Positions 5,922-34,418 of a stretch of DNA of 64,000 nucleotides are shown piece after piece. Position 1 is the stretch's first letter, and each line of letters starts with the position of its first letter. A model generated the notes under the pieces. That model was not told the DNA's origin. It did not search any database and saw nothing but the letters and a program-made list of their open reading frames with translations. A program made the position numbers and the translations under genes. Source of the stretch: Terrimicrobiaceae bacterium (GTDB lineage: Bacteria > Verrucomicrobiota > Verrucomicrobiia > Chthoniobacterales > JAATET01); the NCBI GenBank assembly GCA_028713285.1, contig JAQTOP010000001.1, positions 35,190 to 99,189 of the forward strand. Direction: 5' to 3'.

Positions 5922-6066
5922 GGTGATTCCTCTCCCGGATAACGCAGGCGGAGTGCCAGCTCCGCTGGAACGACAGCCTGCCAGATTGGTTGGGTGCGCA
6001 TGTTTGTATAACCTTCATGGTTCTGTGTTCGTCCGTAACGATAACCATGGTGGTTGGCTTGGTCGG

Positions 6067-7907: not shown

Positions 7908-7938
7908 GGTCGTTTGGTGTCTTTGTTGGTTGGGTTGG

Positions 7939-8883: not shown

Positions 8884-8916
8884 ACTTTGAAGATTGTTTC
8901 CGTCAGATTGTTGCAG

Positions 8917-11169: not shown

Positions 11170-11249
11170 CAGTGTCGACCTTTCTGTTACCGGCGGGTGA
11201 TTTCCGCCTTTACAGATGAATCGACCCGACTTCGGGCAACCGGTAATTC

Positions 11250-14200
11250 TTAGCCCACTTTTTTTGAAATTTTTCCAAGAGGCACCTCCCCGCACACGAA
11301 CAGCGCGGGGCAGTTTGGGCAGGTGCGGGATGATCTATCTGCAGGAAACTGACCGGTCGTGATGGCAGTAAGGATTTTCTGAATGAGTTCCGCCCGGTTC
11401 CCGAGTTTTTTACCGCCCATCGAGGGCTCCCAAGTCTTTTGGTCCGCGAGGTAAGCGACTTCGAGTGATGCACCAGGGAACTGTCTGGTTCCCATCAGGA
11501 TGAAGGCTACCGTCGCCAAATCATCCTCATGGGCCTTTCGATAATGTCCGGATCTGATTCGCCGGATCACCTGATTTCCTGCCTGGTCCGTGAGAGTTTC
11601 GTCGAATGCCACGTTCACGTTGTGTCCACCGATCTCGATTTCAGCAGCGCCTCCTGGCGCGGCTTTTCGGCCATTTCGACTTGAGCGGAGAAACCCCAAC
11701 ATTTGTCCGGCGAGTGTTTGGTAGTCGTCGACGTAGCCGTGCTCGGATAGGCCGGTGGTTTTGAGAGCACTTTGCACCTTTTCGACGAGTTGCTCATCAG
11801 TGATTTCATCGTTGCCGGCCAGTTGGTCACATACTTGTCGCACGGCGTCGTGCATCATCATGAGGCCAGTTTGCTGCCTTTTGCCGCCCGTCCTCAGGAT
11901 GTGGGTGTAGAGGAACCTTCGGGGACACTTGTCATAGAGGGCCAACTCGGAGTCGCGGAAGGTATTGTCGGCCTCAAGCTCAGTCGGGATCGAAGTCTCC
12001 TCCGGCGCGGCGGGGATCTCACGGGTTGGTGCTACTTCGGTCCGGCGCACGTGATTCTGGAGCCGCTCCAAGAATGGAGTCGTCGGGCGGTTGTGGCCGT
12101 TGGATTTTGTCTTGGCAGCATAGAAGCAGAGACGCTCCTTGGCACGAGAGAGGGCGACATAGAAAAGGCACTCTTGCTCTTGATCGTGGGCTTTTTGCAG
12201 GTGTTCTTCTGAGCCTTCATGAGTGCCTTCGATCATTCCGTCCGGGATCGGACACGGCGGGCGCCTCCATGAAGTGGGGAGCGTATCCTTGCTCATTCCC
12301 GGCAGGTGGATGACATCGAACTCAAGTCCTTTTGCCCCATGGATTGTCATGAGCCTGACGGCATCCAGCCCGCTGGCCGCATCGGGCATCTGGCGTAGGT
12401 CTCGATCGTCTCCGAGCAGGATCAATCTTCGCACTCGATTGAGAAGGCGAACAATGGGCAAGCCTTGCGCGGCTGGCTGGCCCTTGAGAAAGTTCATGAA
12501 TTGCCAGATCGCTACTCCCTGTGCTCTGACGGCAACGTCGTTCGATAGGGCGATGTCTGCGGCTTGTCGGGTCCGGTCGAGCAGGAAGACGCTGAGAACG
12601 CGCCAAGGTTGAGACTCGGACGTGAATCCGGCCAATGCCTCGGCAAGGTGGTTGAGGGTATTGATACCTTCCCTGCTGATATGAGGGATTTTTTCGGGAT
12701 CATTGAGCCACGTTCTGGGAGGATCTTGTGTGTCTCTGAGATGATTTAAGATGGAGACCACATCCTCCATTCGCATCATGAACTCGGGCCAAGTAGCTAC
12801 TCGGAGGAGGCCTGCTGCCCGGCGGTCGGTCAAGATGGACAGCAGACTGAGCAAGTCCTTTATCTCCCGGCGTTCGAAGAGACTTCCGAGGAAGAGGACC
12901 GGAATCTTGAGAGATTCGAGTTCGGCGGCCATAGCCGCCAGTCGTTCGTTGCCACCGCACAGCACGGCTTGGTTGCGATAGGGAAAGCCCTGTTCGCGCA
13001 ACTTCTCGATGTTGTCTGCGAGGGCGACGGAGAGTTGATTTCCTCGTTCGACACATTGGAGTTCGGGAGCGATGCCTGAGTTTTCTCGGGTCGGAACGAG
13101 CCGAGTTTCTTCACGGAGCCCTCGCATCTGGGTTGCGAATGTGGAGAAGGTGTCGACGATTTCGACCGAGGAGCGGTAGTTCTTGATGAGCCGACCCCTC
13201 TGACCGCCCGAGAAATCTTGGTTTCCGAACTGGGTGACGTTGAACGAGGAGGCACCGCGAAATCTGTAAATCGATTGTTTGGGATCCCCGACTACCCAGA
13301 GGTTTTTCCCATCTGGCTTGAGGGCGGCGAGGAGCCGAACGCTGCTGCGATTGACGTCTTGGTATTCGTCAACAAGGATGTGATCGTAAAGTTGCTGGAG
13401 GCGGTTTCGGACCTCTTCATTTTGCTCCAGCAGGAGCGCAGGGAGTAGAACCAAATCTCCGAAATCCACGCATTTCTGAGCACGTTTAACTTCCTCGTAT
13501 CTTCGGTAAACTCGCGCGATTTCCTCGACCCTCTGGGCGTTTTGGAGGGATTCCTCGTCAGTAGCGGCTGCAAGCATCGCCTGTGCGAGTTGCTGGTAAC
13601 GGTCGGCGTTAACGACCTCGTCTTTCGCACGTGAAATTGCCCCGAGAATCTCTACAATGCGGGGTGTGGAGTCGTAGATGTCCCGGAAGTGAATGAGGTT
13701 CAGCCGATGAAATTCCTCTTCCAAGAGTTCCACCGCTTCAGTGCGATCCAGTAGTCGAGGATTTTTCGGTAAGTCCAGTTGGTCATTGAAACGCCGAATG
13801 AGATCGAGGCCGAACGCATGGAAGGTTCCTATCGACATGGCGGCCGCTGCTTGGGGATGCCTTTGCGCAAGTCGGTGTGCCATCTCTCCCGCAGCCTTGT
13901 TGGAGAAGGTCAGTAAAAGAATTCTCGCCGGGTCGACGCCATCGGAGAGAAGGGATTCGACCCTCGTGATCAGGGTTTGCGTCTTTCCAGTTCCGGGACC
14001 AGCTTCGAGCAGGTACGCCAGCCCCCAGTGGTTGGAGGCTTCTTGCTGTTCTGGATTGGGTGTTCTATCCCGGGGAGTTTCGTTTGCTGGCTCGACCTCT
14101 GGCAAGAGCAGGGCGTCGAGGAGTTGCTGAGCGACGATTTCGAGGTTGGCACCGAGTTTACTCGCGATGGCGGTGACTGTGAGGCCTTGATCGAGGTGCA

Positions 14201-14645
14201 ATTGCCTTACGAGTTTTCGCGGTAGCAAGAACTCCCTGGCGAATAAGTCCATTTGGACCTCCAGCCTTTGCCTGTGGCTGTAGTCGATAACTCGGTCCGT
14301 GCCGACCGGAGATGATTCTGCCGATCTGGTAGGATCGACCTCGAAGATCTGGCCGTCATCCGTCGAGTCACCCAGCTCGGCGTGTCCGATCTCGTGGGCG
14401 ATCAGAAATGCCTTTTCGAAATCAGTGCCCTTGTCTTCATGCAGAATCAGTTGATCTCGATCGCTGTAAGTCGCTCGGGCACCATTCAACTGGGCGGCCC
14501 CCACCGCCACTGTCTCGACGTCAATCTCCCGGCGTTTTGCTTCAGCCATGGCAAACCCGTAGGGTCGCCAAGGACTCTCTCCTCTTTGAACTGCTTCTGT
14601 ATGCAGGCGAGCGGCAATTTGGCGGGCGGCTTCGACTGCATCCAT
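11250..14645 (-). CDS. ImmA/IrrE-type metallopeptidase domain fused to UvrD-like SF1 helicase and a C-terminal Cas4/AddB-like PD-(D/E)xK nuclease
   Basis: N-terminus: 'AFLIAHEIGHAELGD' (HExxH). Helicase motifs: 'AGPGTGKTQT', 'ILVDEYQDVN', 'VVGDPKQSIYRFRGA', 'NYRS', 'TIHGAKGLEFDVIHL' and 'LFYVALSRAKERL'. C-terminus: 'YDKCPRRFLY...CPNCPALFVCGE' (four Cys, as in Fe-S nuclease domains). Confidence 0.8.
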   Translation of the reverse strand: MDAVEAARQIAARLHTEAVQRGESPWRPYGFAMAEAKRREIDVETVAVGAAQLNGARATYSDRDQLILHEDKGTDFEKAFLIAHEIGHAELGDSTDDGQIFEVDPTRSAESSPVGTDRVIDYSHRQRLEVQMDLFAREFLLPRKLVRQLHLDQGLTVTAIASKLGANLEIVAQQLLDALLLPEVEPANETPRDRTPNPEQQEASNHWGLAYLLEAGPGTGKTQTLITRVESLLSDGVDPARILLLTFSNKAAGEMAHRLAQRHPQAAAAMSIGTFHAFGLDLIRRFNDQLDLPKNPRLLDRTEAVELLEEEFHRLNLIHFRDIYDSTPRIVEILGAISRAKDEVVNADRYQQLAQAMLAAATDEESLQNAQRVEEIARVYRRYEEVKRAQKCVDFGDLVLLPALLLEQNEEVRNRLQQLYDHILVDEYQDVNRSSVRLLAALKPDGKNLWVVGDPKQSIYRFRGASSFNVTQFGNQDFSGGQRGRLIKNYRSSVEIVDTFSTFATQMRGLREETRLVPTRENSGIAPELQCVERGNQLSVALADNIEKLREQGFPYRNQAVLCGGNERLAAMAAELESLKIPVLFLGSLFERREIKDLLSLLSILTDRRAAGLLRVATWPEFMMRMEDVVSILNHLRDTQDPPRTWLNDPEKIPHISREGINTLNHLAEALAGFTSESQPWRVLSVFLLDRTRQAADIALSNDVAVRAQGVAIWQFMNFLKGQPAAQGLPIVRLLNRVRRLILLGDDRDLRQMPDAASGLDAVRLMTIHGAKGLEFDVIHLPGMSKDTLPTSWRRPPCPIPDGMIEGTHEGSEEHLQKAHDQEQECLFYVALSRAKERLCFYAAKTKSNGHNRPTTPFLERLQNHVRRTEVAPTREIPAAPEETSIPTELEADNTFRDSELALYDKCPRRFLYTHILRTGGKRQQTGLMMMHDAVRQVCDQLAGNDEITDEQLVEKVQSALKTTGLSEHGYVDDYQTLAGQMLGFLRSSRNGRKAAPGGAAEIEIGGHNVNVAFDETLTDQAGNQVIRRIRSGHYRKAHEDDLATVAFILMGTRQFPGASLEVAYLADQKTWEPSMGGKKLGNRAELIQKILTAITTGQFPADRSSRTCPNCPALFVCGEVPLGKISKKVG

Positions 14646-14650
14646 ATCAG

Positions 14651-15232
14651 CTAGTCCTCCTTGAGGAGTTTCTCCCTCAGCTCAACGGGGGTGTTCGTCT
14701 GAATGAGCAGCTGCTCAAATGTCACTTGGCTTTGAAGGCTCGGCTTTTCGGTCGCCTTGTAGCTGTGGGCCGACTGCATCTCTGGAGGAGTTGCCAAGAA
14801 ATTAGATAGTTCTTCCAGGCTGCTATCGATCTGGTTGGCCATTCTCCGCAAGAAGGCGCGTGGGATGGATGCCTCCAGAACAATTCTGTCGCGGATCGCC
14901 GCTAGAACTGCTCTTGAGATATTGAGCGCGCGCGCAGCTTCCCTTTGTTGGGCGATGGTCAAGGATACGAAGGGATCGCTGGTCTTGCTCGCTATTCCAG
15001 TTCGGTAGTGTTGCCAGGCCCTTTCTAGGATTGCGTGGTCTTGAGGTTGCAGTTCGGGCGCACTCGCTGAATCGTCTTCAGTGAGGAGCTTTCTGGAGAG
15101 CTCGATAAGATCTCCTGCCATGTGTGGATACTGATCGAGGTATTGATTTAGCGTGTCCTTGCCAGGGTTTGGCTCCATTGAAAAATGGAGTAGGACGTCA
15201 ATATCTTGGTCGCGGTCCGGATGCTGGTTCAT
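14651..15232 (-). CDS. Putative HTH/ImmR-like partner protein
   Basis: 193 aa, ending 5 nt upstream of the ImmA-helicase gene. 'LTIAQQREAARALNISRAVLAAIRDR' looks like a helix-turn-helix. The family was not recognised. Confidence 0.45.
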   Translation of the reverse strand: MNQHPDRDQDIDVLLHFSMEPNPGKDTLNQYLDQYPHMAGDLIELSRKLLTEDDSASAPELQPQDHAILERAWQHYRTGIASKTSDPFVSLTIAQQREAARALNISRAVLAAIRDRIVLEASIPRAFLRRMANQIDSSLEELSNFLATPPEMQSAHSYKATEKPSLQSQVTFEQLLIQTNTPVELREKLLKED

Positions 15233-15238
15233 GGCTGT

Positions 15239-16042
15239 CTACTCCTCGCGAAGAAGATCGCGCAAGGTGCTGAACGCCTTGTCGCGTTGGTTGCGGATGG
15301 TTTTCTCGACTCTTCCGAGAGTTGTTGAGATTGATCTCTCGTTGGGGTCTTTGGACTCGATCGGGTAGCCGAGTCGTAGGAGGTGGATGATGTTTTTTTG
15401 CATGGGCTCCAATTGGTTAATCGCTTGGTCCAGACGTTTCCGGTAATTTGGATCATCCAGTTTGTTTGGATCGGTAGGGTCGAAGCTGCCCGCGCTTCGT
15501 TCTGCCTTTGATGAGATTTCGCCCGATTCGGAGTCGATTTCCAACGGCGCCCTAGTGTCCTTCTCGCGTTGATATTTTCGTTCGCCGTCCGTCTCCAGTG
15601 CCTTTATGGCGACTCCGAAGCGGACCTCGAAGAAGTCCAAACGAGCGGATGGTTTTTCTCGATCCTTGAGCAGGAGGTTGACGAGCCTGTCAATGACGTA
15701 GGCCCGAACTGTGTCTTCTCTGGCCGAAAGGGGGGATTCCGGGTCTCTCATGCAACCGATCTGTTTGAGCACCCGCTCCATTAGAACCTTCCAAAGGCTT
15801 TCATGGCAGCGGTGATTGTGAGGAATTTTGTTGCCACGCAACAGGTGAACAATGACTTCGCTGGGGATGTAACTGTGATGCTCGGGGTCTGCGATGCCGC
15901 AATCCTCGCCAATGCGCTCGACTGATGACGTAAGGCTCTCCGAGATTTTCTTCTCTATTGCGGGGGGGCGGAGATAGAGGTTTTTGTCGCCCTTGCGTTT
16001 GGTAAGAGGATGAACTTCCGCATCAGTCGCTTTCATGTTCAA
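15239..16042 (-). CDS. Divergent sigma-70-like / region-4 HTH protein
   Basis: The C-terminal 'LEPMQKNIIHLLRLGYPIE...SISTTLGRVEKTIRNQRDKAFSTLRDLL' resembles sigma-70 region 4. It stops 6 nt before the next gene. Confidence 0.45.
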   Translation of the reverse strand: MNMKATDAEVHPLTKRKGDKNLYLRPPAIEKKISESLTSSVERIGEDCGIADPEHHSYIPSEVIVHLLRGNKIPHNHRCHESLWKVLMERVLKQIGCMRDPESPLSAREDTVRAYVIDRLVNLLLKDREKPSARLDFFEVRFGVAIKALETDGERKYQREKDTRAPLEIDSESGEISSKAERSAGSFDPTDPNKLDDPNYRKRLDQAINQLEPMQKNIIHLLRLGYPIESKDPNERSISTTLGRVEKTIRNQRDKAFSTLRDLLREE

Positions 16043-16128: not shown

Positions 16129-19100
16129 TTATTCCTCGTAGGTAATTCCGAAGATCGTGTCTGTCAGCCAGCGGCGGAAGGAGTCGTTGTCTTGGAATTG
16201 TTTGAAGAGCTGTGCGTCGTCTTTGAACATTGCCGTGATCACCCGTTTGAGGGCTTTGTCGTGTTCGATTCGCGCGTTCTGCCGGTCGGAGTTTTGCCTG
16301 GCATTTTGGTAGGCCGGGTCCGCTGATACCTTCGGCGGAATGATGTCTATGATCCGCCGTTCCACGGCCTTCGGGTCGTTAAATAGCCCGCCGAACTGGT
16401 CGTTGAAGGCTTTGATGATGTTTGAGAGTTTGTCCATCTCCGGCTCAGGTTTGCGACCGCCGCCGCTCGTTGGCACCGGTTCGATTTCGGCGTCGGCGTC
16501 GGGCAGCGCAATGGCCAGTGTTGCCTTTTTTTCGGCGCGGTAGCTGTCCATGTCGATGGCTTCGAGAATGCCTTTGGCGAGGTCTTCCTCCTTCGGTGCG
16601 GGGAGCTTCGGGATGAGGAAGTTCAGGAAGATCGAGAGTTTTTCCCACTCCTGCACGCCATACGGCAGGATGGTCGCGAGGAAATCATACGTGCGGGTGA
16701 AGGCCTTGGCCTTCCCCTTGAAATCGACCTGCTTGTCCTCGTCGAGGTCGTTCACATAGACGGCGACGCAGGCGTCGAGGATTGGATGAACCTTGTCAAC
16801 GATCTGCCCGTCGAGATAGAGGTTCACGAATTCTTCCACCTGATCCGGCGAATAGACCTGATACCCATCCAGCTCGTTCTTGAGGGTGTGGAGCTTGTTT
16901 GGGTCCGTCTCCTTGCTGAGGATCGTGGCGCGATAGTAGTCGGCGAAGGATTTTTCGATGGCCTCGGTGTCGTTTTGGAAGTCTAGGACGAAGACGTCGT
17001 GCTTTTTCGGGTGTGCCCGGTTCAGGCGAGAGAGAGTCTGAACGGCTTTGATGCCGCTGAGCGCCTTGTCCACATACATGGTGTGCAGCAACGGCTCGTC
17101 GTAGCCGGTCTGGAATTTGTCGGCGCAGATGAGGAATCGATAGGGGTCTTCCTGGATATTGTCCGCGATGTCGTTGCTCGAAAATCCGTTTAGTTTCGCC
17201 TCGCTGACTTTATCGCCCTTGTATTCCGGCTCCCCGGAGAAGGCGACGATGGCCTTGTAGGGGCTTTTGATTTCCTTGAGGTAGGCGGTGAAGGCGAAGA
17301 AATACTCGATGGCCCGCTGAATGCTGCCGGTGACGACCATTGCCCGTGCCTGTCCGCCGATCTTGTTCTGGCCGATCACCTGTTCGAGGAAGTGGTCCAC
17401 CATGATCTCCGCTTTGTCGCGGATGGCTTTGCTGTGACTCTCCACGTAGAGGCGCAGTTTCTTGCGGGCCTTCTTTACGTCGAACTCCGGGTCTCCCTCG
17501 ACGGTTTTGGCGAGTCGATAGTAGCTGTCCACGGGGGTGTATTGTTTCAACACGTCGAGAATGAAACCCTCCTGGATGGCCTGTTTCATCGTGTAGCCGT
17601 GGAAAGGCCGGTGTTTCACCTCGCCTTCCGGGTAGGCGATGCCAAACATTTCCAGCGTTTTGTTTTTCGGCGTGGCAGTGAAGGCGAAGTAACTGGCGTT
17701 TGGCAGCATCTTCCGCTGCTCGATGATGCGGTTGATCTTGTCCTCCGTTGTCTCCTCTTCTTCCTCGGTGGCCTCGCCCAGCGCTGCGCTGATCGCCGCC
17801 GCTGTGCGTCCGCCCTGGCTGCTGTGCGCTTCGTCAATGATGATGGCGAAGTTTCCGCCGCGGTGTTCCGCGCCGATGCTGTCGAGCACGAAGGGGAAGG
17901 TCTGCACCGTGGAGATGATGATTTTCTTCCCGTCCTTGAGGAACTTTGAGAGTTGCTCGGTCTTCGAGACGCCGGCGCCTTCTTTCACTGCACCGACGAT
18001 GCTGCCGACCTGGGCGAAGCCCTTGATGGTCTCGCGGATTTGTTTGTCGAGGATGCGCCGGTCGGTGACGACGATGATCGTGTCGAATGCTTCCTTGCCG
18101 TCCTTCCGCGCGCTGATGAGCTGATGTGCCAGCCATGCGATGGAGTTAGATTTGCCGCTGCCTGCGGAATGCTGGATGAGATAATGCTGGCCCGCGCCCT
18201 TCTCCCGCACGTCGGCCAGGAGTTTGCGCACCACGTCGAGTTGGTGGTAGCGGGGGAAAATCTGAACCTGCTTTTTCTTTCCGGTCTTCGGGTTCTCCTC
18301 CTCCACGATCTGCGCATAGTTTTCCAGAATCTCCGTGAGGCCCGCTGGGGTGAGGATGTGGTTCCAGAGGTAGTCCGTCTTCAATCCGTCCGGATTTGGT
18401 GGATTGCCCCCGCCGTCGTTCCAGCCCTGATCGAAGGGAAGAAACCACGACTCCTTCGCCATGCCCTTGCTGCCCTTGAGCGCCGTGCACATGGCTACCT
18501 TGGCGTCGTCCACCGCGAAATGAACGACGCAACGGCCAAACTCGAACAGCGTCTCGCGTGGATCGCGGTCGCGTTTGTATTGTTCGATGGCGTCCTCGAC
18601 CGTTTGCTTGGTCAGGCTGTTTTTCAGTTCAAAGGTCATCACCGGCAGGCCGTTGATGAAGGCGCAAAGGTCCAGTGCCCGCTTCGTTTCCTCGCGGCTA
18701 TAGGCGAGTTGGCGTGTGATGCTGAACCTGTTCTGCGCGTGCCGCTCCACTGCCTTTTTGTTCTCCGGTGAAGGTGTGCCGTAGAATAGATCGAAGCTCA
18801 GTGCCCCGTGCTTGATGCCGTGCCGCAGCACGTCAATCGTGCCGCGCCGCGAAATCTCTCCCTGCAAGCGGGCGAGGAACTTCTGGCGAGTAATGTTCTT
18901 CTTGTCCTTGTAGTCGCCGATGCCGAGTTTGGCTGTCGCCTCCGGTTGGGTGGCTTGGAGGAAGGCGAAGAGCTGCTCCACATCCACTGCGAACTCGCGA
19001 TCATACGCCGCCGCGTGCCCGGCAAACCAGCCGTTGCCGCCGGTCAGGGGCGCGGTTTCCGCAACGATGCCCGGTGCGCCGGAGAAAAGGCCGCTCGTGC

Positions 19101-19158
19101 CGGTCATGTGAGCCATGATCAGAGTTTCGAGGCCTTTTTCGGTGGTGTCGGTTGGCAT
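16129..19158 (-). CDS. hsdR: Type I restriction enzyme R subunit
   Basis: 1009 aa. N-terminal nuclease 'VMTFELKNSL', SF2 motifs 'HSAGSGKSNSIAW' and 'IIIDEAHSSQ', and a characteristic HsdR C-terminus. Confidence 0.9.
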   Translation of the reverse strand: MPTDTTEKGLETLIMAHMTGTSGLFSGAPGIVAETAPLTGGNGWFAGHAAAYDREFAVDVEQLFAFLQATQPEATAKLGIGDYKDKKNITRQKFLARLQGEISRRGTIDVLRHGIKHGALSFDLFYGTPSPENKKAVERHAQNRFSITRQLAYSREETKRALDLCAFINGLPVMTFELKNSLTKQTVEDAIEQYKRDRDPRETLFEFGRCVVHFAVDDAKVAMCTALKGSKGMAKESWFLPFDQGWNDGGGNPPNPDGLKTDYLWNHILTPAGLTEILENYAQIVEEENPKTGKKKQVQIFPRYHQLDVVRKLLADVREKGAGQHYLIQHSAGSGKSNSIAWLAHQLISARKDGKEAFDTIIVVTDRRILDKQIRETIKGFAQVGSIVGAVKEGAGVSKTEQLSKFLKDGKKIIISTVQTFPFVLDSIGAEHRGGNFAIIIDEAHSSQGGRTAAAISAALGEATEEEEETTEDKINRIIEQRKMLPNASYFAFTATPKNKTLEMFGIAYPEGEVKHRPFHGYTMKQAIQEGFILDVLKQYTPVDSYYRLAKTVEGDPEFDVKKARKKLRLYVESHSKAIRDKAEIMVDHFLEQVIGQNKIGGQARAMVVTGSIQRAIEYFFAFTAYLKEIKSPYKAIVAFSGEPEYKGDKVSEAKLNGFSSNDIADNIQEDPYRFLICADKFQTGYDEPLLHTMYVDKALSGIKAVQTLSRLNRAHPKKHDVFVLDFQNDTEAIEKSFADYYRATILSKETDPNKLHTLKNELDGYQVYSPDQVEEFVNLYLDGQIVDKVHPILDACVAVYVNDLDEDKQVDFKGKAKAFTRTYDFLATILPYGVQEWEKLSIFLNFLIPKLPAPKEEDLAKGILEAIDMDSYRAEKKATLAIALPDADAEIEPVPTSGGGRKPEPEMDKLSNIIKAFNDQFGGLFNDPKAVERRIIDIIPPKVSADPAYQNARQNSDRQNARIEHDKALKRVITAMFKDDAQLFKQFQDNDSFRRWLTDTIFGITYEE

Positions 19159-19162
19159 GGGC

Positions 19163-19759
19163 TCAGAGTTTATCGTTTAGAATTCTTTTCGACCGAGCGA
19201 AGCTCGGAAGCAGGGGTTCAAGCGTTGTCGGGTTTAGCTCGCCCAAGACCACGAACGACCGCTTTCCCTTTTTATACGCATTGGTGCAGTTCCGCGTGGC
19301 GTGTTCGAGCTTGGTATGAACGTCGGCCCGGCCGCGGCTCTCCAGACCATTTGTGGGTGGAAGGGCGTTCTCTTGAAGGTTGTGTCCGTAGTGGGCCTTC
19401 AGGGTTTCCCGGTCCGCCACGATCCACGACTCCATGCATGTCGTCATGAAAAGCACCTGTTCATCCTCGGCCCCTTCAGGTTTTTCCCAATTGTCTCGTG
19501 TCTTAAGGTGCGACCAAGCTTTCTCGATGTCCGCCATGGGGTCCTCGCTGTCGATGAGCATCGCCACAAAGTGGCCGGGCTTTGCATCTGAATGGGCGGT
19601 CTTGAAGTCGTCGAACGCGGAGTCCCTGCCTCCACACGCACTCAGTCGAGGTAGGCGACCCGTGAATCCGGATTTTTCCAGGAGTCGGCGAAATCCCTCG
19701 CGGCAGCGAATTTGATCCTCCTTGGATTCTGCACCCTCGATGTAAAGATGTGCGCTCAC
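19163..19759 (-). CDS. DUF4276-like protein with Toprim-like acidic motifs
   Basis: 'HLYIEGAES...' and 'AMLIDSEDP' give an E...DxD-like pattern. 4-nt overlap with the upstream ATPase gene. Confidence 0.6.
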   Translation of the reverse strand: MSAHLYIEGAESKEDQIRCREGFRRLLEKSGFTGRLPRLSACGGRDSAFDDFKTAHSDAKPGHFVAMLIDSEDPMADIEKAWSHLKTRDNWEKPEGAEDEQVLFMTTCMESWIVADRETLKAHYGHNLQENALPPTNGLESRGRADVHTKLEHATRNCTNAYKKGKRSFVVLGELNPTTLEPLLPSFARSKRILNDKL

Positions 19760-20946
19760 CAGCGGGAACCTCCGATTTCACCTTTGGTCCAGAGCTGCCC
19801 GAGCCGGTATTTTTTCAGCCATGCTGTGAGATCTTTCGCCTTGAGGCGATCCATGCGGGTTTGCCCCTGTTCCTTGGCACATACCACCACGGCCTCCGGC
19901 GTCTCCGTCATCGCGTCAACGAGGATGTCCGAGTGCGTGGTGATGATAAGTTGTGTGCGTTCTGCGGCGGCTTTGATGAGGTCCGCCACCTTGGGGAGGA
20001 TGTCGGGATGCAGACCCAGCTCCGGCTCCTCAATGCAGATCATCTTCGGTGGCTCGGGGTCGCAGAGGATGGCCAGCAAGCAGAGATAGCGCAGAGTTCC
20101 ATCCGAAAGGCGTGTCGCCGGTATGGAGAAGTCTCCTTCCGTGAAGAACACCTGAACGGTTCCGCCTTCGATGAAGACCTCGAAATCATGAATGCCGTCG
20201 TAGAGGTCTTTCAGACCGTTGAGGATCGCCTTCTTGGCTTTCGGGAACTTTGTTTTTAGCCTGTTCAGGAAAAGACCGAGGTTGGAAAAGTCTTCTTCCA
20301 ACGTGTCATTCCGCATGTCTGCCTTCTGCGGTTCGCGGAATACTGCTCCCCGCCCGAATGCCCATTCCCGGTAAATTCGGATGCTTTCGTAACTTTGTGC
20401 CAGCCACGCCAGTTCTGGATAGGTCTCGGGGTCACGACGCTGAGCGAGAATCGAGAGGTCCGTTTCGATGGTGTCACGCGCAAGTTTACGCTGTCCATCG
20501 CCCGCGGTATTCAAGACCGGATGGCCGCCTTGGAAGCGGTAATAGAAATAGGCTTCCGGTTGTCCCTGATAGGGGCTCTGGTTCTCGACCTGTTCATCAT
20601 CGAGGGCGAAGGCTTGCGATACGGCATGAAACGCCATGCTGTGACGAAGCGGCTGTTTCCCTTTTGGATTGCTGACCACGACTTCGAGGCGGGCTTTGCC
20701 GTTCTTCTTTTCACCTTTCCAAATCCACTCTGCTACTCCGCCGCCCTTGCGCGTGACCTCGCGCCATTCCTTTGGTGCGGCACGCAATAGGTTGATCGCT
20801 TCGAGGAGGTTCGATTTGCCACTCCCGTTTGCACCGATGAGCACGTTTAAGTTCCGCAGTTCGAGTCCGGGAAAATCCGGCCCGAAGGAGAGAAAGCTCC
20901 TGGGTTGCAGATGTCGGATTAGGGTTGGATCTGGTGCGGTTGGCAT
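19756..20946 (-). CDS. ABC/SMC-type AAA ATPase (AAA_15/21-like)
   Basis: Walker A 'LIGANGSGKSNLLEAI', Walker B and D-loop 'ICIEEPELGLHP', and 'IITTHS'. Confidence 0.8.
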   Translation of the reverse strand: MPTAPDPTLIRHLQPRSFLSFGPDFPGLELRNLNVLIGANGSGKSNLLEAINLLRAAPKEWREVTRKGGGVAEWIWKGEKKNGKARLEVVVSNPKGKQPLRHSMAFHAVSQAFALDDEQVENQSPYQGQPEAYFYYRFQGGHPVLNTAGDGQRKLARDTIETDLSILAQRRDPETYPELAWLAQSYESIRIYREWAFGRGAVFREPQKADMRNDTLEEDFSNLGLFLNRLKTKFPKAKKAILNGLKDLYDGIHDFEVFIEGGTVQVFFTEGDFSIPATRLSDGTLRYLCLLAILCDPEPPKMICIEEPELGLHPDILPKVADLIKAAAERTQLIITTHSDILVDAMTETPEAVVVCAKEQGQTRMDRLKAKDLTAWLKKYRLGQLWTKGEIGGSRW

Positions 20947-20959
20947 AATTTCAATTTAT

Positions 20960-22129
20960 CTATGGTTCGAGGCATCTTTCGCTGGCGGTTTCCGGAAGCA
21001 GTTTGCTGTAGCCCTCCAGCATGACCGACATCCCATCGAGGGTCGGCTGAACGGTTAGGTCTGGATATTTTTTGCTGATCAAGTCCGCCTTGTTTTTCAA
21101 CAAGACTCGCACGTCTTCAAGCCCTCTCAATTCATCCTCCAACGTCGTTTCAAACTCGGGCACCGTGTCACTGGCCACTGCAAGCGATTGATCGAGCCGC
21201 AGGGAGTATTCGATGAGCATGAGGTGGGGTTGCCTTTCCGTGATTTTCTGGTGCGTCTCTTGATGCGGCCCTTTGTCCACCGGCTCGATCCAGCCAAAAA
21301 TGTTCCGGAACCAGTCTCGTTGATTGGGATCCTTGACTAACTCGATTTCGTGTCGCATTTCGCGCCGCCAGCGCGTGCGTAGTTCTCGAAGTTCTCCTCG
21401 CATTTTCCAAAGCTCCCACTGTTTTTCTTTGGTGACTTCTCCCCGACAAAGTTCGCGGGCTGAGGTGTAGATGCGTTCCAGCGCCGACATTTGGTCGATC
21501 TTCCGATAAGCCAACAAAAGATCGATCTTCGCATCTACGGCCTTCAGTCGCCGAGCAATGTCCGCTCCAGATATGATATGCGCCGCGCCGACAACCACCG
21601 CGCCCAGAGAGGCTAAGCGACCCAATGCTTGGGCTCCTCGAGCCTCCTTCATCATCTCCAAAATGCGGCCGTCCTTGACACCTCGAATCACGGGAAGGGT
21701 CCGTTCGGAAGCGGTGCGGGAAATCACAGCGACGCCTTCTTGCAGCAATTTTTGTCCGTCTTTCGAGATGGATACCACCATGTTCACGCCGGTTTCGGCC
21801 AATTGCAGGCTATTGACCGCAATAACCAAACCGTCAGGCGCTGATGACATCAATCTGCGATTGAGATCGGACAGCGCGGCCTCTTGGCTGGCCCCTGCAA
21901 ACTTCTCCAGGTCCAGGGATTCATCGAAACTCAAGCGCGTGATGACATTATCGAGAGGGCGGGCGGCTTCTACATAATCAGCAACTCGCCCGTCAACGAC
22001 TGCGACGGTTTGACCCATGGGCCTCGCGGTGGTTGATCCAAACCATGATGCAAGCCGCGGCCAGAAAAGAGTCCCGGCTATAAAAACCAACGCAATTCCC
22101 AACAGGATCATGAGCCAATCCCAATTCAT
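20960..22129 (-). CDS. Membrane-anchored protein of unknown function
   Basis: 389 aa with an N-terminal TM helix, 'WLMILLGIALVFIAGTLFW'. The rest is helical and charged. 4-nt overlap with hsdS. Confidence 0.55.
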   Translation of the reverse strand: MNWDWLMILLGIALVFIAGTLFWPRLASWFGSTTARPMGQTVAVVDGRVADYVEAARPLDNVITRLSFDESLDLEKFAGASQEAALSDLNRRLMSSAPDGLVIAVNSLQLAETGVNMVVSISKDGQKLLQEGVAVISRTASERTLPVIRGVKDGRILEMMKEARGAQALGRLASLGAVVVGAAHIISGADIARRLKAVDAKIDLLLAYRKIDQMSALERIYTSARELCRGEVTKEKQWELWKMRGELRELRTRWRREMRHEIELVKDPNQRDWFRNIFGWIEPVDKGPHQETHQKITERQPHLMLIEYSLRLDQSLAVASDTVPEFETTLEDELRGLEDVRVLLKNKADLISKKYPDLTVQPTLDGMSVMLEGYSKLLPETASERCLEP

Positions 22130-23508
22130 GCCTCAACTTCCTCCAATTCTTGCGAGGCATCATAGATTGGGGCCTCGACTGGCATGAGTTCGGATGATTC
22201 AGGCAGCTTGGCTGCTGCGGCGCGGACGTCCAGTTTGCCGGTCACCACGTCCGCCGTCAGCCGCGTCCGGTATTCCTGCATCAGTGCGATTTCCCGCTCG
22301 GTGCGGGCGATTGCGGTGTTGAGGTCTGCCGATTGTTCTCCGATCCCTTTTAGGATGGTGTCCTGTTCGTTCCGAGGTGGTAGCGGAATATGGATCGCGC
22401 CGAACCGGTCGTTGTAGAGTCGCATGAATCCTGAGGTGCCCGTGCCTAGTCCTTTCGATTCGGAGCGAAATTTTACTCGGAGTGTGCGGGTCCGAAAAAG
22501 CTCCCCCAAGTAATCGACGTTCACGTCGGAAATTGGGTCGAAGACGGCGTAGTCGGGACTGACGAGGCCAGTGATTTCGAGACACGAAGGGAATATCACT
22601 CCGTTGCCTGCCTGCATTCGGTTCACTACAAACTGCCGTGGTTTGACAATCTTGAATCCGACCAGCGTTGCCGCTTGGGGTGGGCGAGTGAAGTGCTCGG
22701 AAAATACGACTAGGCCGTGATGCATTCGCATCGAAAGCAGTGGCTCTGCCCCGCTGGTGGAGCGGTTATCAACCTCTTTCAGCAGGTATTTAATTCGTAT
22801 CACCTCCCAATGCTTTGGGATGTCGCTGAGCCAGGGGATGCTGGAGCGTTTGAGGGGGGCGTTGGGGTTGAGGCCGCAGGTGACGGCGCGGTGGATGATG
22901 GCCTGCTTCTGCTCGTTCAGTAGCCCAATCAGCTTTCGTTTGGCGCGGATGAAGCCGTCGATCTTCCGGTTCGCATGGTCTAAAAATCGCACGATAGCCG
23001 CTTGTTCCTCGGGGGGAGGTAGCGGAGTCTTCAGGCTCGCAAATGTCCCGCGTTGAATCGTCTTCCGAAGCCCGGTGTAGAGCGGCTTCATCAGCTTTCC
23101 GTCGTCGATGAAGCGGTAGTAGTGGTTCAGGAAACGGGGATCAACTCGCGCCGTCGGGCTGAAGACGTCGTATGCACCGGTGATCATTCCCCGCTGACGC
23201 GACAGGCCAACACCACGCGGGGTCTCGTCGATGTCGAACAGGCAAAAGATCATGTCGTTTGGCCGAACGACTTTGTAGGTGTTGAACTGCGCTGGAAATT
23301 TCCCCTTGGGATTCACCATGTCGCGGGCAATGACGCCTTGGAGGGTGAGCGAGAGTAGCGTGTAGTCAGAAGCACCTTCGCCTACGACCTGGCGCTGGTC
23401 TTTCATCAGCGCACGATTCGGAATCATTTCCCAATGGCTGGGAACAGCGTCCAGCCACGGCAGGCTGGGATTCTTGTATTCCGAATGCTGCTGGAGTCCC
23501 TCGATCAT
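22126..23508 (-). CDS. hsdS: Type I R-M specificity subunit
   Basis: Two target-recognition halves are each followed by the conserved 'PLPPPEEQAAIVRFLD' / 'PLPPRNEQDTILKGIG' helices. Confidence 0.9.
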   Translation of the reverse strand: MIEGLQQHSEYKNPSLPWLDAVPSHWEMIPNRALMKDQRQVVGEGASDYTLLSLTLQGVIARDMVNPKGKFPAQFNTYKVVRPNDMIFCLFDIDETPRGVGLSRQRGMITGAYDVFSPTARVDPRFLNHYYRFIDDGKLMKPLYTGLRKTIQRGTFASLKTPLPPPEEQAAIVRFLDHANRKIDGFIRAKRKLIGLLNEQKQAIIHRAVTCGLNPNAPLKRSSIPWLSDIPKHWEVIRIKYLLKEVDNRSTSGAEPLLSMRMHHGLVVFSEHFTRPPQAATLVGFKIVKPRQFVVNRMQAGNGVIFPSCLEITGLVSPDYAVFDPISDVNVDYLGELFRTRTLRVKFRSESKGLGTGTSGFMRLYNDRFGAIHIPLPPRNEQDTILKGIGEQSADLNTAIARTEREIALMQEYRTRLTADVVTGKLDVRAAAAKLPESSELMPVEAPIYDASQELEEVEA

Positions 23509-25334
23509 GCCGTGGCTGCCTCCATGACACGGTTGGGATTCCAGATGTGCTCGGCAAGCTTGAGGTAGAGCGTGCAGCGCTCCTCCATCTCGGCGGACTT
23601 GAACAAGACTATCGGTTTGAACGGTAGGCCGGTGGTCTCGATAAATCGAAGGAAGCCGGGATTGTTCTGGTAACAGGTGGAGTGAAGCGAGCGGGCCAGT
23701 ATGTTTTGCCCGTGGTAGTGTGGTAACTTTTCCTCGTAGGTAAGGTCGCCATAGCTGGCATTGAAGCTTTTTGGCAACAGCAGCAACCCGCCGATCCGAT
23801 TGCGCATGGTGGCGAAGTCGCTGGGGTGGCTGAATTCATCCTTGTGCCGTTCAGGGTGGTTGGCCCAGATGTGCTCGATCTCGTAGCGCTTTTTCCCGGT
23901 GGCCATGTATTCCGCGTAGCGCGATGCCATGCCGGAGCGGGTCTCCACAAAATCCGTCATGCGGGCGAGGAGGCGGTGAATCTGACGGCCGTTTGTGCCG
24001 TGCATGGCGAAGCGCTCGTTTTTCGCAAAGGTCTCCTGGTCGTCTGCGAGCCGCTGCGCGAGGACGGCGGCGGTGTCGGCCGCAGATTTCCCCCGGATGT
24101 CCCTTATGACGTTGAACATCGCGTATTGGAGGGTGGAGTAGTCGATGGCTCGCCAATTCCAGATGCGGCGGGTGATGAGAATGTCGATGAAGGTGCTCAC
24201 GACGCGCAGCTTGCGGAGGATTTCCGGTTCTGGATCGTCGGGGAGCAATGGGGCGAGCAGGACTGAATACTGGAGGGTAAAGTTGTGGTGGGTGTTGAAA
24301 TGGATCGCTTCCAAGCCGGTGGTCAATTCCCACCCGGCCCATCTCGTCCGCAGGTATTGGGCGGTGTAGAACTTGAAGTCGCGTTCGATGAAACGGGCGA
24401 ATTCGGAGGATTTCGTCAGGCCGAGACTTTCCTCGTGGTCGCGAATCCAGCGGTGAAACTCGGTGCCGATGAGGTCGAAGTCTTCGGGCTTCGCGTTGCG
24501 TTTGCGTTCGCGAATTTTCTGGGCGTGCTGGCTGCGGAGCCACGCCTTGATGGCGTCGGCGTCTTCTTCCTTGCCCCAGTCCTGGCACTCAGCGATGCGT
24601 TCTTTCCAAACTTTGCTGGCGGCGTTGCGGGTGGACTCGTCGGTGATGTTGGCGAGAAGATAGCCCTTGAGCATGTCCGTAGGCGTGAGGGATAGCCCGC
24701 GGTCGTTCATGGTCTCGAAAATGGTATAGGCGTCCTCGTCGGAGTAGGCGGTGATTTCGACGAGATGGACGTTTTCGATGAGCCAGTCGGCAAAAAACGG
24801 AAGCACGGCTCCGCCGATCTCGTCGGGAAACTCGTCCGCTATGTCTTCGAAGCGGCCGAGGATGTTGACGACGGACTCCGACTGGTCGGTAGGGTCAAAG
24901 GGCTGGCCTGTGTAGATCGCATCCATGCAGGGCGTGCGGTCGGGCACGTCGAGGTTGAAGGAACGCTTACCGTGTTTCCGAGAAAAAATGAGATCGGCCA
25001 TCTGGCCTTTCTCCTCCTCGTCCTCCAAGTGACGGTGCAGGTAGATGAGAAGGAGCGTGAGCGAGGTCAGCCGTTGCTGACCGTCGATAATGTATTTTTG
25101 GCCGTCGCGGTCGCTGATGATGATCGAGCCAAGGAAGTAATGGCCGTAGTTCTCGACATCGGTGCGATCGTGGCCCGACTCGTGACTTTCGAGGAACTTG
25201 GCGGCGAGGTCCTCGACAAGCTCGGTGATCTGCTTGGTCTGCCAGCGGTATTCGCGCTGGTAATAGTCGATGGAGTATTTCGCGCCGCCAAGAAGCTCGC
25301 GAATGGTTTTGGCCTTGCCGAGGATTTCCTTCAT
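23505..25334 (-). CDS. DUF262 (ParB-like NTPase) plus DUF1524 (His-Me nuclease) protein, GmrSD-like
   Basis: 'IDYYQREYRW' and 'DGQQRLTSLTLL' (DUF262); C-terminal 'YEIEHIWANHP' (DUF1524). Confidence 0.8.
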   Translation of the reverse strand: MKEILGKAKTIRELLGGAKYSIDYYQREYRWQTKQITELVEDLAAKFLESHESGHDRTDVENYGHYFLGSIIISDRDGQKYIIDGQQRLTSLTLLLIYLHRHLEDEEEKGQMADLIFSRKHGKRSFNLDVPDRTPCMDAIYTGQPFDPTDQSESVVNILGRFEDIADEFPDEIGGAVLPFFADWLIENVHLVEITAYSDEDAYTIFETMNDRGLSLTPTDMLKGYLLANITDESTRNAASKVWKERIAECQDWGKEEDADAIKAWLRSQHAQKIRERKRNAKPEDFDLIGTEFHRWIRDHEESLGLTKSSEFARFIERDFKFYTAQYLRTRWAGWELTTGLEAIHFNTHHNFTLQYSVLLAPLLPDDPEPEILRKLRVVSTFIDILITRRIWNWRAIDYSTLQYAMFNVIRDIRGKSAADTAAVLAQRLADDQETFAKNERFAMHGTNGRQIHRLLARMTDFVETRSGMASRYAEYMATGKKRYEIEHIWANHPERHKDEFSHPSDFATMRNRIGGLLLLPKSFNASYGDLTYEEKLPHYHGQNILARSLHSTCYQNNPGFLRFIETTGLPFKPIVLFKSAEMEERCTLYLKLAEHIWNPNRVMEAATA

Positions 25335-27658
25335 TTCGCCGCTCCTTTCGTGATCTCGGTGAGCAGGCTCTCGGTTTCCTGCTCTAGCTTGAGGATGTCG
25401 GCACTTATCTCAGCGAGGGTGCGAAGCTGCGGCGGCAGGTAGAAGTGACGAGTGAAGCTGACTTCGTAGCCGATCTTGGTGTCGGCTTCGACGATCCACG
25501 CGTCGGGCGTGTAGGGCAGGACTTCGCGGCGGATGAATGCCTCGATGCCGCCTTCCTCCAGCAACGGAATTTGCTCGTAGTCGCGAAGTTCGCTGTCGGG
25601 TTCGTATTCGGCGACGCTGGTTTTCCCTTCGACCTTTGCTTCGTAGAGTCCGTGTAGAGGGTCGGGCTGAGCTTTGCCGGGCTTGTGAATCTTCTTGATG
25701 ACGGGTGCGGCGGCTTCATCACGCCAGCTCACGGCGGCGACGATGAGTTTCAGGTCGGCGGCACTAGGTTTCAGACCGAGTTTCCTCTGGGTCGCTTCGA
25801 CCTGATCGAGGAAGACGTTGTGATCCTCAAAGAGTCCATCGCCCAGGGCCTCGCGGAGTTTGGTGGCGGTGGCGACAAGCGCCGCGTCGCGCCGCCAGGT
25901 GTCGGTATCGAGCAGCTTCTTCTTTGTCTTTTCCGGCAGGCCCTTCTTTGCGGTGCCGTCGCCGTTGTCCTCATCGTCCCCGGCTTCGTCATCGCCCCAC
26001 GCCTCCACGAGTTTCGCCAGTTCCTCACGGACGGACTGCGGTTTTTCAAAAAGGTCGTCGCCGAGTTTTTCGTAGAGGGCGGCGCGAATCTCCTCGTCGC
26101 CCGACGCGAAGCGGAGCTTCTCGATGAGTGGGCGGGTGAGCTGGCTGTGCAGGCGGAGCGGGCGCTCGACCTTTACCTTCCAGTAACCGAAGGCGGCGTT
26201 GGGGAAGATTTTCGACTGCGGCGTTTCCTCGAACTTGAGGAAAGCATTGCAGATGCGCTGGATGTCCTCGGGGGCAAGTTCGCAGTTTTTCTTGCCCATG
26301 TTCTTTCGCAGCGGGCGGAACCATTGGGTGGCGTCGATGAGTTGCACCTGTCCCCGGCGGTGTTCCGGTTTTCGGTTTGTTACTACCCAGACGTAGGTGG
26401 CGATGCCGGTGTTGTAGAACATGTTCAACGGCAGGGCGACGATCGCCTCCAGCCAGTCGCTCTCGATGATCCAGCGGCGGATGTTGCTCTCGCCTTGGCC
26501 GGCGTCGCCGGTGAAGAGCGATGAGCCGTTGTGCACCTCGGCAACGCGGCTGCCGCGCGGGGTGTCGTGCTTCATCTTGCTGAGCATGTTGGCGAGAAAA
26601 AGCATCTGGCCGTCGCTGCTGCGGGTGAGAAGCGAGTAGTCGGACTCGCCAGCGTGCTGGATGACGAAGCGAGGGTCTTTGAGGTCCTTCTTGCCGCCCA
26701 TGCGCTCGAGATCGCCCTTCCAGCTTTTGCCGTAGGGCGGATTGGCGAGCATGAAGTCGAACTCGCGGGAGCGGAAGGCGTCGTTGGCCAGCGTGGAATG
26801 TTCCGGGCCGCCGACGATATTGTCAGCGGCGTCGCCGTCGCCCTTGAGCAGGAGGTCGGCTTTACAGATGGCGTAGGTTTCGCCGTTGATCTCCTGGCCG
26901 TAGAGATGCGTAGCGACCTGTTTGCCGTGGGCCTTGGCGATCTGCTGGAGCGTCTCCTCGGCGACGGTCAACATGCCTCCGGTCCCGCAGGCGCAGTCGT
27001 AGAGCAGGTAGGTGCCGCTCTCGATCTTGTCTGCCACGGGCAGGAACATGAGGTTTGCCATGAGCCGGACGGCGTCACGGGGCGTCCAGTGCTCGCCAGC
27101 CTCTTCGTTGTTGTCCTCGTTGAAGCGGCGGACGAGTTCCTCGAACATCGTGCCCATCGAGTGGTTATCGAGGCCGGGAAGGTTTCCTGCGGGCTGTGGA
27201 CTGAGGTTGATGTCCTTATCGAGGAACTTCTCGATGAGCTGGCCGAGCGCATCGGCCTTCGAGAGACGCGGGATCTGGTTGCGGAACTCGAAGTTGGTGA
27301 GAATGTCCTGCACGTTGGGCGAGAAGCCGTCGAGGTAAGCCTCGAAGTCATCGCGGAGTTTCTGCTGGGTTGCGCGGGATTTAAGGTCGCGCAGGAGGAA
27401 GGGCGAGGTGTTGTAGAACGCCTGCCCAGAAGCGGCGCGGAGGGCATCGTCCTGATTGGTGACGCCTTCTTTGTCGAGGGCGGCTTTCATTTCGAGAACG
27501 GTCTGCTTGGTGGGCTCCAGCACCGCGTCGAGGCGGCGGAGCACAGTCATCGGCAGAATGATGTCGCGGTATCTGCCGCGGACGTAAACATCCCGCAGGA
27601 CATCATCCGCGATGTTCCAAATGAAGTTGGTGAGTCCGCTGAGTTGAGTTTGGTCCAT
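25331..27658 (-). CDS. hsdM: Type I R-M N6-adenine DNA methyltransferase subunit
   Basis: 'YDCACGTGGML' (SAM motif I), 'MLANPPYGKSW' (motif IV) and an N-terminal HsdM_N-like region. Confidence 0.9.
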   Translation of the reverse strand: MDQTQLSGLTNFIWNIADDVLRDVYVRGRYRDIILPMTVLRRLDAVLEPTKQTVLEMKAALDKEGVTNQDDALRAASGQAFYNTSPFLLRDLKSRATQQKLRDDFEAYLDGFSPNVQDILTNFEFRNQIPRLSKADALGQLIEKFLDKDINLSPQPAGNLPGLDNHSMGTMFEELVRRFNEDNNEEAGEHWTPRDAVRLMANLMFLPVADKIESGTYLLYDCACGTGGMLTVAEETLQQIAKAHGKQVATHLYGQEINGETYAICKADLLLKGDGDAADNIVGGPEHSTLANDAFRSREFDFMLANPPYGKSWKGDLERMGGKKDLKDPRFVIQHAGESDYSLLTRSSDGQMLFLANMLSKMKHDTPRGSRVAEVHNGSSLFTGDAGQGESNIRRWIIESDWLEAIVALPLNMFYNTGIATYVWVVTNRKPEHRRGQVQLIDATQWFRPLRKNMGKKNCELAPEDIQRICNAFLKFEETPQSKIFPNAAFGYWKVKVERPLRLHSQLTRPLIEKLRFASGDEEIRAALYEKLGDDLFEKPQSVREELAKLVEAWGDDEAGDDEDNGDGTAKKGLPEKTKKKLLDTDTWRRDAALVATATKLREALGDGLFEDHNVFLDQVEATQRKLGLKPSAADLKLIVAAVSWRDEAAAPVIKKIHKPGKAQPDPLHGLYEAKVEGKTSVAEYEPDSELRDYEQIPLLEEGGIEAFIRREVLPYTPDAWIVEADTKIGYEVSFTRHFYLPPQLRTLAEISADILKLEQETESLLTEITKGAAK

Positions 27659-29091: not shown

Positions 29092-29270
29092 AAATGGTTG
29101 CGGAAATCGGTGCCTCCCGTCGAGGGACGCCAGCACGCAAAGCATGCGAAGAAGGGGAAATCGGTCTTATGCAGGAGCATCGGAATGCGTTTACCCGCGA
29201 ACCGTAGTTTCCACCAGTAGAATTTCTATTAGTAGAAAACAGGAAGGGCTTCATGCCCTAAAAAGAAGGT

Positions 29271-31577: not shown

Positions 31578-31600
31578 CGCCGTTTTACGTTAGCTCCGAG

Positions 31601-34403: not shown

Positions 34404-34418
34404 TCCTTTGGTGCTCGG

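Follow-up and report, generated by a model that had tools for sequence, protein, structure and literature searches.

A Terrimicrobiaceae metagenome-assembled genome is the source of the 64,000-nucleotide stretch analysed here (the window; contig JAQTOP010000001.1, positions 35,190 to 99,189), which carries a single minus-strand operon that runs from position 27658 to position 16129 in the order hsdM, a GmrSD-like gene, hsdS, a gene for a membrane-tethered protein that we call X, the ATPase and DUF4276 genes of the candidate defence system HEC-01 (HEC-01A and HEC-01B), and hsdR (Table 1). The three co-directional hsd genes make up a complete type I restriction-modification set at one locus, and every gene of the operon except X could be identified with both Pfam and PADLOC. 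All junctions are either overlaps of 4 nucleotides or gaps of 4-13 nucleotides: the GmrSD-like gene shares a 4-nucleotide overlap with each of its neighbours, hsdS and X overlap by 4 nucleotides (ATGA), 13 nucleotides separate the stop codon of X from the ATG of the ATPase gene, the ATPase and DUF4276 genes overlap by 4 nucleotides, and hsdR starts 4 nucleotides after the DUF4276 gene. Internal promoters and terminators were predicted in the operon at chance level. The GmrSD-like protein unites DUF262 (GmrSD_N) and DUF1524 (GmrSD_C), both above the Pfam cut-offs, and its match to HEC-06 is broken into three stretches, so that the assignment to a subfamily is tentative.

An earlier note on this DNA, made from the sequence alone, had singled out positions 19163-22129 and proposed that X is coupled, as an added effector or sensor, to the ATPase/DUF4276 pair. 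The open reading frames it listed, the overlaps and the 13-nucleotide gap, the transmembrane segment of X and the YIEG and IDSED motifs of the DUF4276 protein are all present in the sequence; the chosen span, although correct in its reading frames, omits the surrounding operon from hsdM to hsdR that explains the arrangement.

Table 1. Genes of the type I restriction operon in order of transcription, with two segments of X.
Feature	Position	Strand	Evidence
hsdM, type I methyltransferase, first gene of the operon	25331-27658	-	Pfam HsdM_N 2e-24, N6_Mtase 1e-49; PADLOC MTase_I 5e-253
GmrSD-like (DUF262/DUF1524) type IV restriction enzyme, between hsdM and hsdS	23505-25334	-	Pfam GmrSD_N 1e-33, GmrSD_C 9e-7; PADLOC best HEC-06 2.9e-38 (subfamily tentative)
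hsdS, specificity subunit	22126-23508	-	Pfam Methylase_S 1e-8; PADLOC Specificity_I 1e-79, full length
X, 389 residues, ATG start, membrane-tethered, in the slot between hsdS and hsdR	20960-22129	-	Open reading frame; without Pfam, PADLOC, NCBIfam or PHROG match
N-terminal transmembrane anchor of X, residues 5-23	22061-22117	-	Kyte-Doolittle; AlphaFold2 helix at residues 3-31
Most conserved segment of X, residues 172-190, LASLGAVVVGAAHIISGAD	21560-21616	-	Alignment of 68 relatives
HEC-01A, ABC-type ATPase, 396 residues	19756-20946	-	PADLOC PDLC04177; Pfam AAA_21, AAA_15, SMC_N
HEC-01B, DUF4276 Toprim-like protein, 198 residues	19163-19759	-	PADLOC PDLC04201; Pfam DUF4276
hsdR, restriction/translocase subunit, last gene of the operon	16129-19158	-	Pfam HSDR_N, SWI2_SNF2, ResIII, T1R_D3-like; PADLOC REase_I 4e-43

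The ATPase/DUF4276 pair

Both genes downstream of X match the HEC-01 models of PADLOC over their full length. The ATPase aligns to HEC-01A with an E value of 1.1e-172 (residues 9-396 on positions 4-393 of a profile of 393) and the DUF4276 protein to HEC-01B with 2.8e-64 (residues 2-197 on positions 3-199 of 202), and the Pfam matches above cut-off are AAA_21 (1e-35) and AAA_15 (6e-19) for the former and DUF4276 (1e-10, 42.3 bits against a cut-off of 30.2) for the latter. The translated ATPase contains a Walker A motif (GANGSGKS, residues 38-45), a signature-like LSDGT and a Walker B motif (IEEPE). The acidic residues of its partner are E8 in YIEG and D70 and D73 in IDSED, of which D70 and D73 are invariant in an alignment with a 28%-identical homolog from Meiothermus. 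That this partner is Toprim-like, as had been suspected from its motifs, agrees with the published placement of DUF4276 in the Toprim superfamily, where it is related to Mad4 (PMC12065111), and DUF4276 modules sit on the same ATPase phylogeny as the AAA15/21-associated modules in the PARIS paper (PMC11464382).

HEC-01, or Hma-embedded candidate 01, has been described as a two-gene candidate pairing an ABC ATPase with a TOPRIM protein and located within other defence systems (Payne et al., bioRxiv 10.1101/2024.01.29.577857). The two genes of the window likewise neighbour each other on a single strand and sit inside a different defence system, the type I operon, where they lie between hsdS and hsdR. 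Judged by profile matches and arrangement, the pair is one more instance of HEC-01 and nothing new, which is in line with the expectation that it would prove to be an abortive module of known type, HEC-01 itself being a candidate system. The accompanying suggestion that it might be of the AbiL type did not hold, since AbiLi matches the ATPase at 6.2e-25 with partial coverage of the profile, against 1e-172 for HEC-01A, and the partner has no AbiLii match. PARIS (AriAB) was likewise rejected, as the partner matches DUF4276 only and not DUF4435 and no AriB model is among the PADLOC hits, and so was MADS, for which the NCBIfam model MAD3 (NF047739) gives 88.4 bits against a cut-off of 420 and the other genes are absent. 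By analogy with OLD, PARIS and Gabija, the ABC ATPase of HEC-01 would sense infection and license the Toprim nuclease.

A membrane-tethered protein of no recognised family

X is composed of an N-terminal anchor, a variable linker and a conserved cytoplasmic domain of about 330 residues. The anchor (residues 5-23, WLMILLGIALVFIAGTLFW) has a Kyte-Doolittle mean of 2.34, and an equivalent N-terminal hydrophobic helix is found in 63 of 68 aligned relatives. Lysine and arginine residues average 0.1 before the anchor and 3.4 in the 15 residues after it, a bias that indicates an N-out/C-in topology and hence a cytoplasmic location of the domain. In the public annotation (PHC88_00295) the protein starts at Met38 and is 352 residues long, which omits the anchor together with the rest of the first 37 codons (22019-22129); the presence of the anchor in homologs and the ATGA overlap with hsdS favour the 389-residue form. 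Codon comparisons with the two closest relatives gave ratios of nonsynonymous to synonymous substitution rates (dN/dS) of 0.14-0.15, indicative of purifying selection, with the first 60 codons more relaxed.

Conservation culminates in a hydrophobic segment with the pattern AAH-x5-D, whose most conserved positions are V180, A183, H184, I186 and D190; of the 68 diverse relatives, 95% keep A183 and H184 and 97% keep D190. Further conserved polar residues are R209, D212, E218, E226, R251, R255, E257 and E333. The AlphaFold2 model built from a 68-sequence alignment has a mean predicted local distance difference test score (pLDDT) of 82.6. In it the anchor helix is followed by a disordered linker, a helix (residues 74-96), a small sheet (approximately 134-159) and a bundle of long helices between 189 and 375, and pLDDT is below 50 across residues 168-188. 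A second transmembrane helix at 168-188 was considered and rejected, as the stretch consists of about 15 uncharged residues flanked by K171/K174 and D190/K193/K194 and reaches a Kyte-Doolittle mean of 1.6 only in some relatives. The charge of the cytoplasmic domain (median isoelectric point 8.4) was uninformative as a hint of DNA binding or DNA mimicry.

Database comparisons gave X no recognised family, as the earlier note had stated from inspection. At E ≤ 0.01 it matched none of the families in Pfam-A, PADLOC v2.0.0 (5027 models), NCBIfam 20 and PHROGs v4, the 68 relatives scanned singly against Pfam gave no consistent weak hit, and a sequence-profile search of the PDB gave no match. The Foldseek comparison that the note had proposed also returned nothing significant (E ≤ 0.001), the best E values being 0.44 in the PDB and 0.18 in BFVD. 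The top PDB hit, JukB (9jht_B), was not significant (E 0.44, template modelling score 0.24-0.34, root-mean-square deviation 17 Å) and had no match at the sequence level, which makes it a tentative lead at most, and an SPFH/flotillin-like or EzrA-like architecture found no support in Pfam or Foldseek. X thus belongs to a rare, undescribed protein family.

Its homologs amount to 51 clusters at 90% identity among 5.8 billion proteins and to 366 representatives at 50% identity among 1.84 billion, and 185,579 species genomes yielded only 12 loci, belonging to Planctomycetota, Verrucomicrobiota, Nitrospirales, Calditrichaeota and one Vibrio. Searching the word-indexed protein database with profiles brought almost no gain, and the diversity of the broad alignment (A2) was too great for scanning loci with it. 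No homologs were found in 2.9 million viral contigs, 50,697 phage records, BFVD or a plasmid collection, and a phage or plasmid origin of X was discarded accordingly. The N terminus varies within the family: in some members (P0062, P0068, P0092, P0097, P0124) it is replaced or extended, the variants being a coiled coil of 100-300 residues, a 200-residue soluble domain and, before the anchor, an alanine/proline-rich extension that was read as TPR-like, and a copy embedded in BREX (L064, 193-2136) has an N-terminal extension of about 325 residues. The C-terminal region of one member was read as acetyltransferase-like. In an uncultured Verrucomicrobiae (L026, 10001-10937) the homolog is split over three reading frames, next to aceK and away from defence genes, and is probably a decaying pseudogene.

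Genomic contexts of X

Loci encoding X were collected from the encoding contigs, species genomes and metagenomes and their neighbours annotated with tblastn, Pfam and PADLOC, which left 43 non-redundant informative loci. One reading is that X, the ABC ATPase and the DUF4276 protein form a single three-gene system, in which X would serve an OLD/PARIS-like pair as an extra sensor or effector at the membrane; the adjacency and common direction of the three genes, with their 13-nucleotide gap and 4-nucleotide overlap, speak for it. The HEC-01 pair stands beside X in only two of the 43 loci, the window and L069. The trio at L069 is no independent observation, since this locus belongs to the same operon lineage, with 91% identity to the window in hsdM, 95% in HEC-01A, 89% in HEC-01B and 91% in hsdR (89-95% over these flanking genes). 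Its hsdM is called as one product of 1263 residues (4843-8634), without a separate GmrSD gene, to which only residues 1-773 of the window hsdM align; it could be a fusion with another domain or an artefact of gene calling.

The pair is absent from the other 41 loci, and tblastn with the window HEC-01 proteins found none in the X loci L001-L067. The closest relative of X (L068, 85% identical) also lacks it: the order there is hsdM, SLFN/AlbA_2, GmrSD, hsdS, pP_pnuc, a 52-residue open reading frame, X, a 313-residue open reading frame and hsdR. Conversely, the Meiothermus taiwanensis plasmid pMtWR-220 (L072) carries the same restriction lineage, with an hsdR 69.5% identical to that of the window, and no X. 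Its order is hsdM, DUF262, hsdS, DUF4433, macro, AAA ATPase, DUF4276 and hsdR, so that a DarT/DarG-like pair of DUF4433 and macro-domain proteins fills the slot of X, followed by the 28%-identical ATPase/DUF4276 pair (4390-7998). At L059 a different ABC ATPase gene begins 16 nucleotides after X, which might again suggest a functional link; however, it is NsnB-like and the ABC module at L042 is Septu, both of other families, and since ABC ATPases are the commonest embedded cargo (bioRxiv 10.1101/2024.01.29.577857), ABC modules near X are expected as background. HEC-01 was, moreover, defined as a system of two genes (bioRxiv 10.1101/2024.01.29.577857). A three-gene system therefore strikes us as very improbable. 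X and the HEC-01 pair appear from their distribution to be independent passenger modules rather than one system, because the pair occurs in so few X loci, is missing at the closest relative and exists without X in the same lineage. The proposal that X is coupled to the pair is thus not borne out: its homologs occur irrespective of such pairs, the very outcome that the earlier note had set in advance as evidence against it.

What X does accompany is restriction. In 28 of the 43 loci it lies inside or directly beside a restriction-type system: type I restriction of at least three divergent lineages (17 loci), DISARM-like systems (four), BREX (two), type IIG/L with MmeI/Eco57I-type enzymes (two), McrBC (one) and other methyltransferase-helicase systems (two). 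Four more loci have other defence genes nearby (Tiamat TmtA, a KAP NTPase, an SMEK_N protein and an Lhr-like helicase fragment), and 11 have nothing recognisable in the neighbourhood (e.g., L003, L052 and L058; one of the 11 is the L026 pseudogene). In type I systems its usual place is right after hsdS with an overlap of 4-8 nucleotides (e.g., L001, L008, L010, L030 and L069), and at L070 it starts 2 nucleotides downstream of McrC. The types of host system are interleaved on a neighbour-joining tree of X, and identity at L068 is mosaic, 85% for X against 66-69% for the flanking hsdM and hsdR. In their other cargo these operons differ freely (GmrSD, SLFN/AlbA_2, a large helicase, NYN, PIN, Septu, an NsnB-like ATPase and a HEPN-like protein), and in sister operons the slot of X holds known defence genes (DarTG-like, GmrSD, NYN, PIN, Septu). 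X is a conserved, membrane-tethered protein with a cytoplasmic domain that is co-transcribed with restriction enzymes and moves as an independent module.

Variable neighbours of X were examined as possible conserved partners and rejected: the 260-residue gene at L010 and the 281-residue gene at L005 are mutually unrelated and have no PADLOC hit. PDB searches with three other neighbours (L016, L022, L068) were empty. The 281-residue gene (L005, 9159-10004), which overlaps the start of X in a DISARM-like locus and has no Pfam or PADLOC match, contains RNPIAH, a HEPN-like Rx4H motif.

A preference for restriction loci would also be expected if X were an accessory of restriction, that is, a tether or regulator that positions or controls translocating complexes (HsdR, SNF2/DISARM, BREX, McrBC) at the site of DNA entry or restrains them against self-damage. 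Most of the 28 restriction-type loci contain an ATP-dependent translocase or helicase, the junctions with hsdS and McrC are close, and the topology of X places its conserved domain in the cytoplasm at the membrane. The partner systems, however, have no common subunit to which X could bind. The same type I lineage does without X on the Meiothermus plasmid and on a Sphaerotilus plasmid, where hsdR directly follows hsdS, and X is also found beside non-restriction defences (Tiamat, KAP NTPase) and alone, while the interleaving of host types on its tree fits a freely moving module. An accessory role is a doubtful, though not negligible, alternative to a passenger that acts on its own.

The surroundings of the operon suggest a larger unit. 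GC content is 53-59% up to about 37 kilobases into the window, operon included, and 60-72% further on. The low-GC block contains a CBASS-like cluster (6067-11295, minus strand) with a CD-NTase (DncV-like_NTFase, 6720-8045), a patatin phospholipase (7939-8883) and a Cap2-like protein with DUF6791 and ThiF (9300-10841), as well as an overlapping 279-residue open reading frame (10456-11295) and one of 221 residues (6067-6732). At 11250-16042 (minus strand) a fusion protein of 1131 residues joins a peptidase of the IrrE/M78 type (HEIGH motif) to a UvrD helicase and a PD-(D/E)xK nuclease, and the PADLOC models that it matches best are RTasHel and GajB; this region may be an additional defence module. 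Open reading frames of 193 and 267 residues, the latter with a faint match to sigma-70 region 4, lie between this protein and hsdR, and just upstream of hsdM there is a 420-residue open reading frame (27883-29145, minus strand) without Pfam match whose hydrophobic N terminus was read as a signal peptide. The edge of the block (30564-36173) carries an AAA ATPase, a Mob_Pre relaxase (31601-33637) and a large serine recombinase (34419-36173); no tRNA gene was found in the window. With its CBASS-type genes, the IrrE-UvrD-PD-(D/E)xK protein, the relaxase and the recombinase, the block looks like a mobile defence island, and the entire island looks like an integrative mobilisable element.

Such surroundings could also be those of a gene unrelated to defence, a membrane protein of a mobile element or of some niche housekeeping function that hitch-hikes in recombination-prone restriction loci. 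The relaxase and recombinase of the island and the 11 loci without recognisable defence neighbours would agree with this, yet X shares the direction of its neighbours and is translationally coupled to them in no fewer than six kinds of restriction or defence system, its distribution is very patchy, it is absent from the plasmid and phage collections, and known defence genes take its slot in sister operons. We regard this explanation as highly unlikely.

A proposed defence role of X and comparison with known systems

Our results favour, with a probability of roughly 0.6, a single type I operon in which the slots between subunits have been filled by three independent passenger modules, the pair being HEC-01 and X a separate single-gene defence module. 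By guilt-by-embedding, X is best read as an autonomous, membrane-tethered candidate defence gene. It would itself be anti-phage and, being expressed together with the restriction enzyme, would add a second defensive layer, positioned on the inner side of the membrane at the point of phage DNA entry. The mechanism that we favour, with low confidence, is one in which X is a self-contained sensor and effector: a phage cue would cause its cytoplasmic domains to assemble, and the clustered anchors, together with the hydrophobic segment, would then damage the membrane in the manner of abortive infection. The wider proposal, to which we would give about even odds, is that X founds a new membrane-tethered anti-phage family of unrecognised fold that can be added to any system of DNA restriction (type I, IIG/L, McrBC, BREX, DISARM) and has its site of action at the inner membrane, either as a backup abortive effector when restriction is evaded or as a link between DNA entry and restriction.

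The same location would suit a protein that blocks entry of the phage genome at the inner membrane without killing the cell, as in superinfection exclusion. X is single-pass and tethered to the cytoplasmic face of the membrane, and co-expression with enzymes that attack incoming DNA would make it a sensible first layer. Superinfection-exclusion proteins, however, are typically encoded by prophages, whereas searches of viral contigs, phage records and BFVD returned no homolog of X, and no feature of its sequence indicates contact with a phage-specific component, so that an entry block seems very unlikely.

Several observations weigh against a passenger defence gene of this kind, or against parts of its proposed mechanism. 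The defence role of X is that of a candidate, deduced from its genomic company, and the 11 loci without recognisable defence neighbour do not speak for it. The sequence of the anchor is not conserved and some relatives have 100-300 residues of coiled coil between anchor and domain, which is easier to reconcile with a tether than with a helix lining a pore. The conserved hydrophobic stretch contains only about 15 uncharged residues, too few for a canonical membrane span. Some twelve conserved polar residues (H184, D190, R209, D212, E218, R251 and E257 among them) would be just as compatible with an enzyme or a ligand-binding site. All loci were retrieved by searching for X, and they cannot be used to judge how persistently X is kept within one restriction lineage. 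As for the pair, the HEC-01 representative did not protect E. coli against any phage tried in the single published assay (bioRxiv 10.1101/2024.01.29.577857), which leaves it a candidate, unproven as a system.

The way in which X is embedded is what Payne et al. term guilt-by-embedding, and they note that over half of the genes lodged in BREX, DISARM and type I systems still lack a clear function (bioRxiv 10.1101/2024.01.29.577857). Restriction systems of at least five different mechanisms have taken up X repeatedly, for the most part in phyla that are little studied (Verrucomicrobiota, Planctomycetota, Nitrospirota). If X protects against phage, it would be a membrane-tethered addition to the embedded second-line defences and would offer a route to study how membrane-proximal events are coupled to DNA restriction. 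Since hundreds of comparable candidates already exist, its worth depends on experiment. The window is also an example of how densely defences can be layered in one restriction operon, with type I restriction, a GmrSD-like enzyme, X and HEC-01.

Compared with known systems, the pair resembles HEC-01 in its profiles matched end to end, its overlapping adjacent genes and its embedding in another defence system, and differs in its host, a type I restriction operon here and Hma in the defining case. It is designed like PARIS (AriA, an ABC ATPase, and AriB, a DUF4435 Toprim protein) and like OLD and Gabija, with a Toprim protein as the partner of an AAA_15/21 ABC ATPase, although its partner is DUF4276 and the AriA profiles match the ATPase only partially (6e-34), far below HEC-01A. 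The likeness to Mad3/Mad4 of MADS lies in the reported homology of Mad4 to DUF4276 (PMC12065111) and in the weak MAD3 match of the window ATPase. X, as a membrane-bound protein of defence islands, is comparable to the transmembrane effectors of CBASS and Pycsar and to the pore-forming JukB, but its one anchor is not conserved and its cytoplasmic domain is large and conserved, and its match to JukB is not significant. Its closest counterparts could be the guilt-by-embedding candidates of PADLOC (the PDC and HEC sets), with which it shares co-directional embedding in type I, BREX and DISARM-like systems, although it matches no PADLOC v2.0.0 model and is too rare for the abundance cut-offs of the study that defined them. 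These comparisons fit X as a new and rare family of a known kind, embedded defence cargo, standing next to a pair that was already a known candidate.

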